Of a stretch of 64,000 nucleotides of DNA, positions 17,518 to 19,542 are shown in pieces. Position 1 is the stretch's first letter; each line of letters starts with the position of its first letter. This DNA is from Escherichia phage WPEC2. The stretch lies in the sequence record PV691511.1. One strand, given 5' to 3'. Made by a program: the position numbers and the translations under genes. The notes beneath the pieces are model-generated. The model saw only the letters and a program-made list of their open reading frames with translations, was not told the DNA's origin and did no database searches.

Positions 17518-19542
17518 ATGAATTTAACAAGACCTAATAGTGCGATAGCCGATCTAGTAGAAGCTACTTATCGAAAACGTCGCAGCTTTGAGGCAGGTTT
17601 TACATTACGTAATTCCCGCGAAGTTTTGCTGTTAGCAGCAGAAGGGAATTATTACCAATGGAAAGGAACTTTTCCTAAAGTAGTTCCAGCAAACTCTACG
17701 CCAGCAACCACAGGTGGTATTTCTTCCCTAGCGTGGCAAAGTGTTGGAACTGCGGATGATATAGCAATCATCAATGCCAAGTTTACTGCAATGCAGCAAC
17801 AGATTGATGATATTTCTGAAGCAATTCCAGAAGCTGGTAAATCAGCTTATCAGATTGCAGTAGATAACGGTTTTGTTGGAACGGAAGCACAATGGCTGGC
17901 TTCTTTGAAAGGGGACACTGGTGCTCAACTAAACATTAAAGGATCATTAGCAAGCACGAATGAGCTACCATCTACAGGTAATGTAGCAGGTGATGGTTAC
18001 ATTGTAGGAGATGTAATATATGCTTGGGACGGTTCTGTTTGGAAACTTATTTCTTCTCTTGGACCAGAAGGGAAATCAGCTTATGAAGTATGGTTGGCGG
18101 ATGGCAATACAGGATCTGTTTATGACTTCCTTGCTTCTATAAAAGGAGATAAAGGTGACGTTGGTCCTACAGGTCCACAGGGAGCACCTGGTGTTAATGC
18201 CAACGGTTTTGATTATCGTGGGGATTTGCCTTCCACAAGTAACTTACCACAACCTAACTCTGAAAACGTAAGTCAAGCTTATTCTATTAATGGTAATCTT
18301 TATGTTTCTAATGGGACGGCTTGGGTCAACATGGGTAATATTGTTGGTCCTCAAGGCCCACAAGGTGAGGCAGGTAAAGATGGTCTAGACGGAACAGATG
18401 GTGACGAAGGGAAATCGGCTTACCAGAGTTGGTTAGACATTGGTAATGAAGGGACAGAAGTAGATTTTGTTGCTGCCTTAAAAGGAGAGAAGGGGGACAA
18501 AGGAGAGAAGGGAGATCCTGGCCCACAAGGTGAACAGGGTGTTCAAGGTATCCAAGGTCCGGTCGGTGCAGGTCTTTCTGTAAATGGTGAATTGTCAGAT
18601 GTTTCAGAACTACCTTCTGTAGCAGAGGTTGGTGATGCCTACATCGTAAAAAATGAACTTTACGTGTGGATCGACGACAATCAAACGTGGCTAAATGTAG
18701 GTAGTTTGGGTGGTAGATCTATTACAGCTAAAGGTCATGTTGCAAATGGAGAAGCTCTCCCTGTTTACAATAATTATGGAGATGCATATTTAACCGAAGA
18801 TACCAGTAATCTTTATATTTACACTTACGATGAAGATACTAATTCTGCATCTTTTGTAGATATGGGGAGTATCAAAGGTGATAAAGGTGAGAAGGGAGAT
18901 AAAGGGGATAAGGGCGATCCTGGAACAAACGGAACCAACGGTACTAATGGGACCAATGGTAAAGACGGCGCACAATGGTTTGTAGCAACAACTAATCCAA
19001 TTGCAGGGGATGGCGTTATCAATGATTACGCTTTCAATACTACCACTGGAGCAGTGTTTAAGAAAACAGATTCTTCTACGTGGACACTTATAGGAACTCT
19101 TCCTAGTATACCAGAAGCCCCTCAAGACGGTTTGACGTATGGTCGTTCTGATGGAAACTGGATCGAAATATCAGGATCAGATCCTACGGAAGCTATAACA
19201 CCAACTAGAGTTACAGCAGGTTTCATGGAACTTGAAACAACTACTGCCAACTCTGGAACATCTTGGACTCCTTCTGGAACTTCCAATATGTATGTTGTTA
19301 CAGTAACTGACGCTCTAACAGTTGGAGCATGGCCTGGTGTCACTGGCTCTACAAAACCTAAAGCATTTTCCGCAATGATTTATTTGATTCAAGATACAAC
19401 GGGACACACGGTTACACTAGATGCGTCTTATGGAGCACTGAATGATACAGAAATAGCAACTACTGCTAACGCAGTAACAATTTTGCAATTAACGTATCCT
19501 GGTGTGGGTGATATCGTGGACATGGTTGTTGTAACACGATAG
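17518..19542 (+). CDS. collagen-like repeat tail fiber protein
   Basis: 674 aa with four Gly-X-Y blocks (GDKGDVGPTGPQGAPG; GPQGPQGEAGKDGLDGTDG; KGEKGDKGEKGDPGPQGEQGVQGIQGPVG; GDKGEKGDKGDKGDPGTNGTNGTNGTNGKDG) interleaved with repeated GKSAY...LKG modules. Confidence 0.8.
   Translation: MNLTRPNSAIADLVEATYRKRRSFEAGFTLRNSREVLLLAAEGNYYQWKGTFPKVVPANSTPATTGGISSLAWQSVGTADDIAIINAKFTAMQQQIDDISEAIPEAGKSAYQIAVDNGFVGTEAQWLASLKGDTGAQLNIKGSLASTNELPSTGNVAGDGYIVGDVIYAWDGSVWKLISSLGPEGKSAYEVWLADGNTGSVYDFLASIKGDKGDVGPTGPQGAPGVNANGFDYRGDLPSTSNLPQPNSENVSQAYSINGNLYVSNGTAWVNMGNIVGPQGPQGEAGKDGLDGTDGDEGKSAYQSWLDIGNEGTEVDFVAALKGEKGDKGEKGDPGPQGEQGVQGIQGPVGAGLSVNGELSDVSELPSVAEVGDAYIVKNELYVWIDDNQTWLNVGSLGGRSITAKGHVANGEALPVYNNYGDAYLTEDTSNLYIYTYDEDTNSASFVDMGSIKGDKGEKGDKGDKGDPGTNGTNGTNGTNGKDGAQWFVATTNPIAGDGVINDYAFNTTTGAVFKKTDSSTWTLIGTLPSIPEAPQDGLTYGRSDGNWIEISGSDPTEAITPTRVTAGFMELETTTANSGTSWTPSGTSNMYVVTVTDALTVGAWPGVTGSTKPKAFSAMIYLIQDTTGHTVTLDASYGALNDTEIATTANAVTILQLTYPGVGDIVDMVVVTR
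18145..18970 (+). repeat. collagen-like Gly-X-Y triplet repeat region (coding)
   Basis: Four interrupted runs of ggN-NNN-NNN codons read directly in sequence. Confidence 0.8.

Follow-up and report, generated by a model that had tools for sequence, protein, structure and literature searches.

Collagen-like sequences have been described in several phage adhesion proteins. EPclA and EPclB of EHEC prophages are collagen-like side-tail-fibre proteins whose triple helices are experimentally stable (PMC3368898), and the Tal proteins of Streptococcus thermophilus phages carry collagen-like stretches of variable length that are broken by inserted modules (PMC7533335). Closest to the gene considered here are phi92 gp151 and phAPEC8 gp179 (Stephanstirmvirinae TfpM2), followed by phiTE gp215 of Pectobacterium and the Vequintavirinae-like fibres named 'collagen triple helix repeat-containing'. 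A recent cryo-EM study of phi92 (2026) could fit the gp151 orthologue into none of three fibre densities (PMC13450770), and we found no virion proteomics covering the tail-fibre protein in the Phapecoctavirus papers examined. The phi92 gp151 orthologue belongs to a phage group that is in therapeutic use.

Here we analyse the corresponding gene of Escherichia phage WPEC2 (PV691511.1) in a stretch of 64,000 nucleotides, referred to as the window. It codes for a tail fibre of a phAPEC8-like E. coli phage and is already known and annotated. Escherichia phage WPEC1 (Phapecoctavirus) and the window are 100% identical, and the translated reading frame is 100% identical to WPEC1 CDS329, a 'tail fiber protein'. 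It also matches phrog_15437 'tail fiber protein' over its full length (residues 1-674 against profile positions 1-655 of 656, 1274.6 bits), with 92% identity to the phAPEC8 protein cluster and 59.6% to phi92 gp151. According to the WPEC1 annotation the gene forms the end of the baseplate/fibre module, with a colanidase-type tailspike on one side and an RCC1/Big_2 tail protein on the other. The position directly downstream of the colanic-acid-degrading tailspike is kept in the annotation tables of both WPEC1 and phi92.

Architecture of the fibre

An initial annotation had described a modular collagen-like fibre with repeated non-collagen flanks, and the reading frame, the four Gly-X-Y runs and the repeated flanking units are all confirmed. 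We call the 27-28-residue unit GKSAY...LKG A, the unit of about 47 residues LP...GD.Y.V...W..G B, and a collagen run c followed by its number of triplets. The protein then reads Tail_spike_N, helix, A-B-A-c6-B-c8-A-c10-B-B-c11-B', foldon-like motif and C-terminal beta-sandwich, with three A units, four clear B units and a degenerate fifth, B'. The features are as follows.

17461..17483, no strand assigned: GC-rich, terminator-like hairpin in the gap between the fibre gene and the tailspike gene upstream of it
17518..19542, +: tail-fibre gene (ORF list; 674 aa and stop), orthologue of phAPEC8 gp179 / phi92 gp151 ('TfpM2')
17551..17748, +: N-terminal Tail_spike_N (PF18668), aa 12-77, presumed attachment domain
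17758..17823, +: predicted alpha-helix, aa 81-102 (AF2 secondary structure H81-102)
17836..17916, +: A unit 1 (GKSAYQIAVDNGFVGTEAQWLASLKGD), aa 107-133 (AF2 helix-loop-helix, H110-116 and H123-130)
17926..18066, +: B unit 1 (LP...GDGY.V...YAWDG..W), aa 137-183 (HMM domain E 1e-18; AF2 four-stranded beta unit, pLDDT 84-86)
18070..18150, +: A unit 2, aa 185-211 (motif, HMM, AF2)
18145..18198, +: collagen run c6, aa 210-227, 6 Gly-X-Y triplets (length constant in all orthologue clusters)
18205..18348, +: B unit 2, aa 230-277 (HMM, AF2)
18346..18417, +: collagen run c8, aa 277-300, 8 triplets (segment of 11-29 residues in orthologue clusters)
18409..18489, +: A unit 3, aa 298-324 (motif, HMM, AF2)
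18469..18720, +: allelic cassette, end of A3 with c10 and B3 (two alleles among relatives)
18484..18573, +: collagen run c10, aa 323-352, 10 triplets
18571..18714, +: B unit 3, aa 352-399 (HMM, AF2)
18721..18879, +: B unit 4, longer variant, aa 402-454 (HMM domain E 2e-12; AF2 beta strands)
18874..18959, +: two 9-nt tandem arrays, AAAGGTGAT x4.2 and GGAACCAAC x3.9, encoding GDKGEKGDKGDKG and GTNGTNGTNGTNG (Tandem Repeats Finder)
18877..18975, +: collagen run c11, aa 454-486, 11 triplets, length-variable (the -9 and -18 nt variants map here)
18976..19098, +: B' unit, degenerate B without LP motif, aa 487-527 (alignment, first-round HMM; four strands in AF2)
19099..19176, +: foldon-like motif (IPEAPQDGLTYGRSDGNWIEIS), aa 528-553 (similarity to T4 fibritin foldon)
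19177..19539, +: C-terminal beta-sandwich domain, aa 554-674, presumed receptor-binding tip
19545..19564, +: terminator-like hairpin and T-run right behind the fibre stop codon (annotated in ASO2A)

Phage ASO2A also has a rho-independent terminator annotated where the upstream hairpin sits. The repeating cassette that had been proposed, an A unit, a Gly-X-Y run and a B unit, describes part of the shaft: it holds for A1-(2 triplets)-B1, A2-c6-B2 and A3-c10-B3, but not for B2-c8-A3, B3-B4 and B4-c11-B'.

The N-terminal Tail_spike_N domain scores above the Pfam cut-off, and the N-terminal domains of the CBA120 and G7C tailspikes match it by sequence and fold. In CBA120 TSP1-4 and G7C gp63.1 this domain leads into an enzymatic beta-helix, whereas here it is followed by the collagen/A/B shaft, and Pfam and NCBIfam scans of the protein detected no beta-helix or enzyme family. 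At E<=0.1 the Pfam scan listed Tail_spike_N and Collagen and nothing else. The predicted helix behind the attachment domain is probably a short coiled-coil neck.

The four collagen runs add up to 35 triplets and match PF01391 Collagen with 53.9 bits against a cut-off of 27.2. Their composition is 13% proline and 43% charged residues with 12 KGD/KGE motifs; such a composition, poor in proline and rich in charge, is typical of collagens from bacteria and phages. True tandem repeats in the DNA are confined to the two 9-nt arrays in the last run, at 18874-18918 and 18922-18959.

Behind the last collagen run and B', the foldon-like motif shares 13 of 22 residues with the foldon of T4 fibritin. Fibritin and foldon entries of the PDB match the fibre at E 0.003-0.1, among them the engineered (GPP)10-foldon 1NAY; Fibritin_C (PF07921) reaches 14.5 bits against a cut-off of 21, and several homologues lie above threshold. 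Common to T4 fibritin, 1NAY and the WPEC2 fibre is a motif of about 25 residues, IPEAP.DG..Y.R.DG.W, directly C-terminal to a trimeric rod, in our case a predicted one. In fibritin the foldon stands at the extreme C-terminus after a coiled coil, whereas here the motif is internal (aa 528-553 of 674), behind collagen and in front of a 120-residue domain; in distant homologues it occurs in tandem repeats. It is likely to serve in nucleating the trimer and setting its register.

The C-terminal domain resembles beta-sandwich domains of phage spikes and fibres. A homology search with the C-terminal 147 residues returned three fragments only, and the wider spread of the domain was taken from a local jackhmmer run on the proteins already collected. 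The MAFFT alignment of distant C-terminal domains was out of register with jackhmmer and was dropped for structure prediction in favour of an alignment of ten close orthologues. The phiTE fibre structure 9cuy_g was considered as an experimental tip and set aside, as only N-terminal residues are modelled there. Among Phapecoctavirus isolates this domain is the most conserved part of the gene (97-100% nt identity), which is unusual for a tip that determines host range.

Placed beside the described systems, the fibre is most like phi92 gp151 and phAPEC8 gp179. These are syntenic orthologues directly behind a colanidase-type tailspike and have the identical order A-B-A-c-B-c-A-c-B-B-c-foldon-CTD. 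The phi92 protein differs in its shorter collagen runs (6/6/9/6 triplets vs 6/8/10/11 in the window) and phAPEC8 in carrying the commoner allele of the c10-B3 cassette. Similarly, phiTE gp215 and the Vequintavirinae-like fibres use the same building blocks and the foldon-CTD end. The order of phiTE_215 is c23-B-A-B-A-c7-B-c9-A-c9-B-c15-B-c11-B-c13-B-c10-F-F-CTD, so that the core A-B-A-c-B-c-A-c-B is common to both, but it differs in its N-terminal attachment region, is longer in B-collagen cassettes, of which it has more, carries two foldon-like motifs and comprises 1,099 residues.

Other collagen-containing phage proteins are built differently. EPclA and EPclB are likewise phage-encoded trimeric fibres combining collagen with non-collagen trimerisation modules (PMC3368898), a trimeric state that we infer for the WPEC2 fibre. 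They differ in having one long collagen domain flanked by PfN, PCoil, Pf2 and PfC and in lacking A and B units; conversely, the Pfam scan (E<=0.1) found no PfN, PCoil, Phage_fiber_2 or PfC domain in the WPEC2 fibre. The S. thermophilus Tal proteins are also adhesion devices with interrupted collagen-like stretches, but there the inserts are BppA-like carbohydrate-binding domains on a gp27-like Tal, without A or B units. The Pa223 capsid spike gp52 and the multiplexin (collagen XV/XVIII) trimerisation domain have no significant sequence relation to the fibre.

The A and B units

The three A units are 48-56% identical to each other, and their pairs match on average at 14.3 of 27 positions, whereas 2000 shuffles gave 1.9 on average and never more than 5. 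HMMs built from the units of homologous proteins recover the B units of the fibre with domain E-values of 1e-12 to 1e-19. Among the 417 ORFs of the window, no other contains either kind of unit or at least 5 consecutive Gly-X-Y triplets. The units are old repeats whose DNA has diverged: between them, nucleotide identity is 45-67% and the longest exact match of any two is 12 nt. In AF2 models of a single chain, A is predicted to form two short helices and B four strands, with pLDDT 76-91. Low confidence (pLDDT <50) is confined to the collagen runs, as expected since one chain only was modelled.

Neither unit is covered by a Pfam or NCBIfam model, and a literature search with the GKSAY-type motif as a string gave no match. 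The B profile has marginal matches only in the PDB, phiKZ gp184 at E 0.019 and JBD30 DUF2793 at E 0.039. A B-like unit of gp184, resolved by cryo-EM, superposes with 1.5 Å over 34 residues at 26% identity; gp184 is an internal capsid protein, monomeric where resolved, and the sequence relation of this fragment is marginal. The link to DUF2793 found no confirmation: Pfam lists this family neither for the A-B-A segment nor for B-rich proteins. The A profile gave nothing significant in the PDB, where designed ankyrin repeats at E 0.05-0.7 are regarded as a chance helix-turn resemblance. DUF2934 (PF11154), precomputed on A-rich homologues, was not taken as the A-unit family: its match is cumulative and weak, with no significant single stretch.

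The block A-B-A matches 7,948 protein clusters (50% identity) and the genomes of 359 phages, whose hosts are Gram-negative as well as Gram-positive, in every unit order. Across this wider family, proteins contain 0-38 A and 0-15 B units; the number of B units is 4-7 in relatives that have the N-terminal part in common. The B' unit before the foldon is conserved across the family and absent from one orthologue cluster, P0014.

One possible reading, which we would put somewhat short of even odds, is that A and B are widespread trimer 'punctuation' domains. They would belong to a combinatorial shaft kit of A, B, short collagen runs and foldon-like hairpins, in which they act as register clamps and cassettes are exchanged by recombination. 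The clamps would keep proline-poor collagen of 6-11 triplets folded at 37 °C, and cassettes such as the c10-B3 alleles would swap between fibres at conserved unit borders. The B units could instead intertwine as a triple beta-helix, as hinted by a weak similarity to the Pa223 gp52 spike.

Variation among isolates and relatives

The initial annotation had suggested that copy number and fibre length could vary between isolates. Comparing repeat number across related genomes shows near constancy: 51 of the 58 phage records spanning the whole gene have exactly the length of the query, and in the phAPEC8 protein cluster (168 members) every full-length member examined has 674 residues. Small in-frame changes do occur. 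ASO2A lacks 9 nt and iGC_PHA_EC001 18 nt, in both cases from within the tandem 9-nt repeats that encode part of the last collagen run, and in phiWec phages the gene is 21 nt longer.

Two records carry larger indels. In SKA64 a tandem duplication of 76 nt comprises exactly A unit 1 and is out of frame. EP57 has an in-frame deletion of 486 nt (162 aa); this record, of 130 kb, falls short by 20 kb, and both fibre genes next to this one are truncated as well. Homology at the EP57 junction was sought as a trace of repeat-mediated recombination, and only 1-2 nt of microhomology were found. We suspect that both indels are errors or defective variants.

A different kind of variation affects the c10-B3 cassette, which exists as two alleles with about 54% nucleotide identity in genes that are otherwise 95-100% identical. 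Between tuntematon and phAPEC8, about 104 of 145 mismatches fall within gene nt 952-1203. The window type is the rarer one, with 13 records compared to 48 of the phAPEC8 type. From these comparisons, whole-module variation among close relatives is one of content, not of number. Judging from the collected homologues, unit number does differ at deeper divergence, between genera and across the wider family; among close relatives the suggested variation is for the most part not seen.

These data bear on the idea that the cassettes are a device for length variation, with unit copy number changing often between isolates via recombination among repeats. The small changes in the last collagen run, the exact duplication of an A unit, the in-frame deletion and the wide range of unit numbers between genera and across the family speak for it. 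The constant length among isolates and the unit order retained in phi92 at 60% identity speak against it, as do the frame of the SKA64 duplication and the state of the EP57 record. Moreover, exact identity between units of at most 12 nt does not suffice for efficient homologous recombination among them. We therefore consider such a device unlikely; the shaft is that of an ordinary phage fibre whose unit number is constant in nearly all sequenced isolates.

Proposed build, location and meaning

From the observed sequence architecture, homology, gene context and variation pattern we infer, with a probability of roughly 0.8, a trimeric, baseplate-docked, receptor-contacting lateral tail fibre of collagen/A/B type of a phAPEC8-like (Phapecoctavirus) myovirus. 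Three identical chains would form a thin fibre, docked on the baseplate/fibre-adaptor complex by Tail_spike_N and the short helical neck. Its shaft would consist of four short collagen triple helices, proline-poor, charge-rich and together about 30 nm long, separated and capped by A (a 28-residue helix-loop-helix) and B (a four-stranded beta unit of about 47 residues), which probably keep the three chains in register and serve as joints. The foldon-like beta-hairpin behind the last collagen run probably starts trimerisation from the C-terminal side, and the terminal beta-sandwich would touch a host surface structure. The shaft would evolve by slippage of 9-nt repeats in collagen runs and by recombination that replaces whole cassettes; on a longer time scale, units would also be gained and lost.

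The fibre might alternatively sit at the head or neck, whisker-like or capsid-bound, as T4 fibritin does, whose foldon the motif recalls. For gp151, the phi92 record labels the N-terminal domain a 'potential capsid binding domain', there is a fold likeness to the Pa223 head spike gp52 (also PMC13450770), and the gp151 orthologue is missing from the phi92 tail-fibre densities (PMC13450770). However, a thin flexible collagen fibre would average out in cryo-EM at any site, the N-terminal domain is homologous to those of the baseplate-attached CBA120 and G7C tailspikes and is shared by the adjacent colanidase-type tailspike, and the gene lies within the baseplate/fibre block. A head or neck location thus appears improbable. 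That the repeats are a product of assembly collapse or expansion, as the aberrant SKA64 and EP57 records might suggest, is excluded because the architecture recurs in dozens of genomes that were sequenced independently: the 2,025-nt gene is found in this form in about 50 genomes from many laboratories and in metagenome contigs, and its units are too diverged in DNA to mislead an assembler. A bacterial-type collagen-like surface adhesin (Scl/Lcl-like) carried as a phage moron has next to no chance of being correct, as the collagen runs match the NCBIfam families SclA, SclB and Lcl weakly (45-60 bits against family cut-offs of 325-500), the sequence is without signal peptide or LPXTG-type anchor, its collagen is flanked by phage tailspike and fibre domains, and the gene is conserved and syntenic within the virion structural module.

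For the lateral tail fibre that we favour, the domain map, with its anchor, about 30 nm of collagen and a conserved tip, guides the search for phi92 gp151 in the virion. The natural collagen-foldon layout with its short clamped triple helices offers a ready design for engineered trimeric fibres. Defining A and B, which are absent from Pfam and NCBIfam, would better annotate thousands of phage proteins now called 'hypothetical' or 'collagen-like'. The conspicuous repeats themselves are simply how this known family of phage fibres is normally built; they mark neither a hypervariable locus nor a fault of assembly.

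Repeat architecture of the fibre protein

The modular collagen-like repeats described by the initial annotation fall within exactly one open reading frame, at 17518-19542 on the plus strand, which encodes 674 amino acids. Its protein contains four Gly-X-Y runs (c6 to c11, numbered by triplets) and two kinds of non-collagen unit, A and B.

Repeat features of the fibre protein (amino-acid positions; gene on the plus strand)
107-133, 185-211, 298-324: A units (GKSAY...LKG, as originally quoted)
137-183, 230-277, 352-399, 402-454: B units (LP...GD.Y.V...Y.W..G), four clear copies by alignment
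210-227: run c6, 6 triplets, uninterrupted
277-300: run c8, 8 triplets, uninterrupted
323-352: run c10, 10 triplets, uninterrupted
454-486: run c11, 11 triplets, uninterrupted
487-527: B', degenerate fifth B copy

Between A units an average of 14.3 of 27 positions agree; in 2000 shuffles the matches averaged 1.9 and never rose above 5. Every unit was recovered by HMMs trained on units taken from homologous proteins (domain E-values 1e-12 to 1e-19), and these gave no match to any other open reading frame in the window (417 open reading frames). The repeat architecture is thus real and was correctly described. Nucleotide identity between units is 45-67%, the longest identical stretch being 12 bases, a divergence that marks them as old; genuine tandem DNA repeats are limited to two 9-nt arrays, both within c11. 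The shaft follows the order A-B-A-c6-B-c8-A-c10-B-B-c11-B'. The start of each collagen run coincides with the LKG of an A unit or with the terminal G.I.G of a B unit, and its end runs straight into an A or B unit; after the last run come B' and then a foldon-like motif.

A large family and its locus

In relatives that share the N-terminal part, A units number 2-3 and B units 4-7. The order in phiTE gp215 is c23-B-A-B-A-c7-B-c9-A-c9-B-c15-B-c11-B-c13-B-c10-F-F-CTD (F, foldon-like motif; CTD, C-terminal beta-sandwich, the presumed tip). Among a set of 265 proteins we counted 1,864 A units (0-38 each) and 1,049 B units (0-15 each). Units adjoin one another in all possible ways (A-A, A-c-A, A-c-B, B-c-B, B-A, A-B, B-c-A and B-B); a fixed [A]-[GXY]-[B] cassette does not exist. 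The distant proteins P0095, P0097, P0082 and P0020 carry the foldon-like motif of about 22 residues in tandem, up to about eight copies, before the tip domain common to most distant members; such stacked hairpins are apparently undiscussed in the literature examined. The A-B-A segment matched 7,948 cluster representatives at E<=0.001 and 359 phage genomes, with hosts including Escherichia, Pseudomonas, Erwinia, Lactobacillus, Staphylococcus and Listeria. Collagen-like phage fibres are a large known class, of which this fibre is a member; its gene has already been deposited under the annotation of tail fibre. The one mildly new element is that these two very common 'punctuation' units have no model in Pfam or NCBIfam, and no description of them was found in the literature searched.

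The Escherichia phages WPEC1, WPEC4 and WPEC6 match the region at 100% identity, and some 60 further genomes of Phapecoctavirus (phAPEC8-like) do so at about 89-94%. In WPEC1 the frame is annotated 'tail fiber protein' and is the last gene of the baseplate/fibre module, preceded by a short-fibre gene, its chaperone, a lipoprotein and a 1017-aa colanic-acid-degrading tailspike, and followed by an 890-aa RCC1/Big_2 tail protein. A phrog_15437 match spans the protein end to end; phAPEC8 gp179 falls in the same 90% cluster region, and phi92 gp151 is the syntenic orthologue (59.6% identity, identical unit order). A recent paper names the gene TfpM2 and its downstream neighbour TfpM1, the latter absent from phi92-like phages (PMC12695924).

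Several further observations concern this neighbourhood. In the upstream tailspike homologue (14401-17454, plus strand, 1017 aa, colanic-acid degradation) Tail_spike_N lies internally at aa 302-361, and the first ~110 residues resemble the N-terminal part of phrog_4549 fibres; phrog_4549 has a second match in the C-terminal domain of the collagen-like fibre, and these common matches suggest domain shuffling among the fibres of the locus. The downstream protein (19584-22256, plus strand, 890 aa) combines an RCC1-like beta-propeller, Big_2 and a DUF285/leucine-rich-like C-terminus; phi92 has different genes after gp151, in line with the absence of TfpM1. GC-rich hairpins flank the fibre gene at 17461-17483 and 19545-19564, the second with a T-run; both sites are annotated rho-independent terminators in phage ASO2A, and each fibre gene may form its own transcription or attenuation unit. 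Four adjacent glycosyltransferase genes (about 31606-34750, minus strand), also present in phi92, lie within the replication module and may modify DNA or a surface structure. Over the whole window the sign of the GC skew flips near 22, 38 and 46 kb; the 22 kb point, the one compared with annotation, coincides with a switch in gene direction. The phage records that match window positions 14000-23000 include near-identical Phapecoctavirus genomes named Campylobacter phage B15, Klebsiella phage ZCKP1 and Acinetobacter phage vB_AbaM_ABPW7, and one with a Pseudomonas name; with fibre genes 89-94% identical to those of coliphages, these four host labels look doubtful.

Predicted folds and a proposed mechanism

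Tail_spike_N at aa 12-77 (Pfam, 70.5 bits) matches the N-terminal domains of CBA120 TSP1/3/4 and G7C gp63.1 by sequence and fold, and the neighbouring tailspike has the same domain, placed internally. AF2 predicts a helix at aa 81-102. Residues 528-553, IPEAPQDGLTYGRSDGNWIEIS, are identical to the T4 fibritin foldon at 13 of 22 positions; PDB foldon entries are among the matches, and the Pfam Fibritin_C score is under the cut-off. In single-chain AF2 models the A unit forms two short helices and the B unit four strands (pLDDT 76-91), and the collagen runs are of low confidence, as expected when one chain is modelled. The predicted B fold has an experimental counterpart: in the cryo-EM structure of phiKZ gp184, a B-like segment can be superposed on the model over 34 residues (1.5 A), although that segment is monomeric and capsid-internal.

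The collagen runs would oblige a homotrimer. They contain 13% proline, 43% charged residues and 12 KGD/KGE motifs; a charge-rich, proline-poor composition is a bacterial means of stabilising triple helices without hydroxyproline. Collagen peptides as short as 6-11 triplets depend on trimerisation elements at their flanks, (GPP)10-foldon being an example, and A, B and the foldon may act as register clamps, nucleation sites and joints. Tail_spike_N would dock the fibre onto the baseplate or an adaptor, and the terminal beta-sandwich would bind the host. At 0.286 nm per residue the 35 triplets of the collagen part come to about 30 nm (35 x 3 x 0.286), and the whole fibre with its other domains might reach roughly 50-70 nm. 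On occasion, 'thin tail fibers of 70 nm' have been observed in rV5, a related phage (PMC3606486); these might correspond to the present protein.

That the protein sits in the head or neck instead of the tail is improbable, and keeps a small share of belief because cryo-EM of phi92, published in 2026, left gp151 as one of several candidate fibres without a place and noted its similarity to the Pa223 head spike (PMC13450770), a similarity that recurs weakly in our fold searches.

Variation between isolates

The initial annotation further supposed that copy number and fibre length could vary between isolates. Gene length equals that of WPEC2 in 51 of 58 phage records spanning the whole gene; full-length members examined are all 674 aa in the phAPEC8 cluster (168 members) and 653 or 656 aa in the phi92-type cluster.

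Length changes in the fibre gene
ASO2A: -9 nt, inside the 9-nt arrays of c11
iGC_PHA_EC001: -18 nt, inside the 9-nt arrays of c11
phiWec phages: +21 nt
SKA64 (OM362897): +76 nt, locus 695-770, tandem duplication of exactly A unit 1
vB_EcoM_EP57 (OR544956): -486 nt, in frame, c10-B-B-c11 removed

The SKA64 duplication causes a frameshift that splits the gene, and reflects either a sequencing or assembly error or a natural, defective duplication of the unit. The EP57 deletion has nearly no homology at its junction, the genome is 130.7 kb, 20 kb short, and the adjacent fibre genes are also shortened (482 and 542 aa instead of 1017 and 890). The record has the look of an assembly that collapsed or of a phage with multiple deletions. 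Across orthologue clusters (57-92% identity) unit order is constant, one cluster being without B', and change is confined to the lengths of the collagen runs: c6 is fixed while c8 covers 11-29, c10 21-27 and c11 9-39 residues.

Fibre length among isolates thus changes in triplet steps and not in cassettes. The supposed variation holds only at the triplet scale and over deep divergence; frequent copy-number change between isolates is contradicted, as are an assembly artefact and an Scl-like adhesin.

One cassette is nevertheless exchanged. Between tuntematon and phAPEC8, about 104 of 145 nucleotide differences lie within gene nt 952-1203 (window 18469-18720), covering the end of A3, c10 and B3, which is about 54% identical against 95-100% for the remainder. 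The window has the tuntematon/ukendt allele (13 records; phAPEC8 allele, 48). The difference amounts to the clean replacement of a single module whose borders lie within conserved units. The most conserved parts of the gene are the N-terminal anchor and the C-terminal domain (97-100%). At the scale of isolates, change in this fibre consists of collagen run length and the swap of one cassette.
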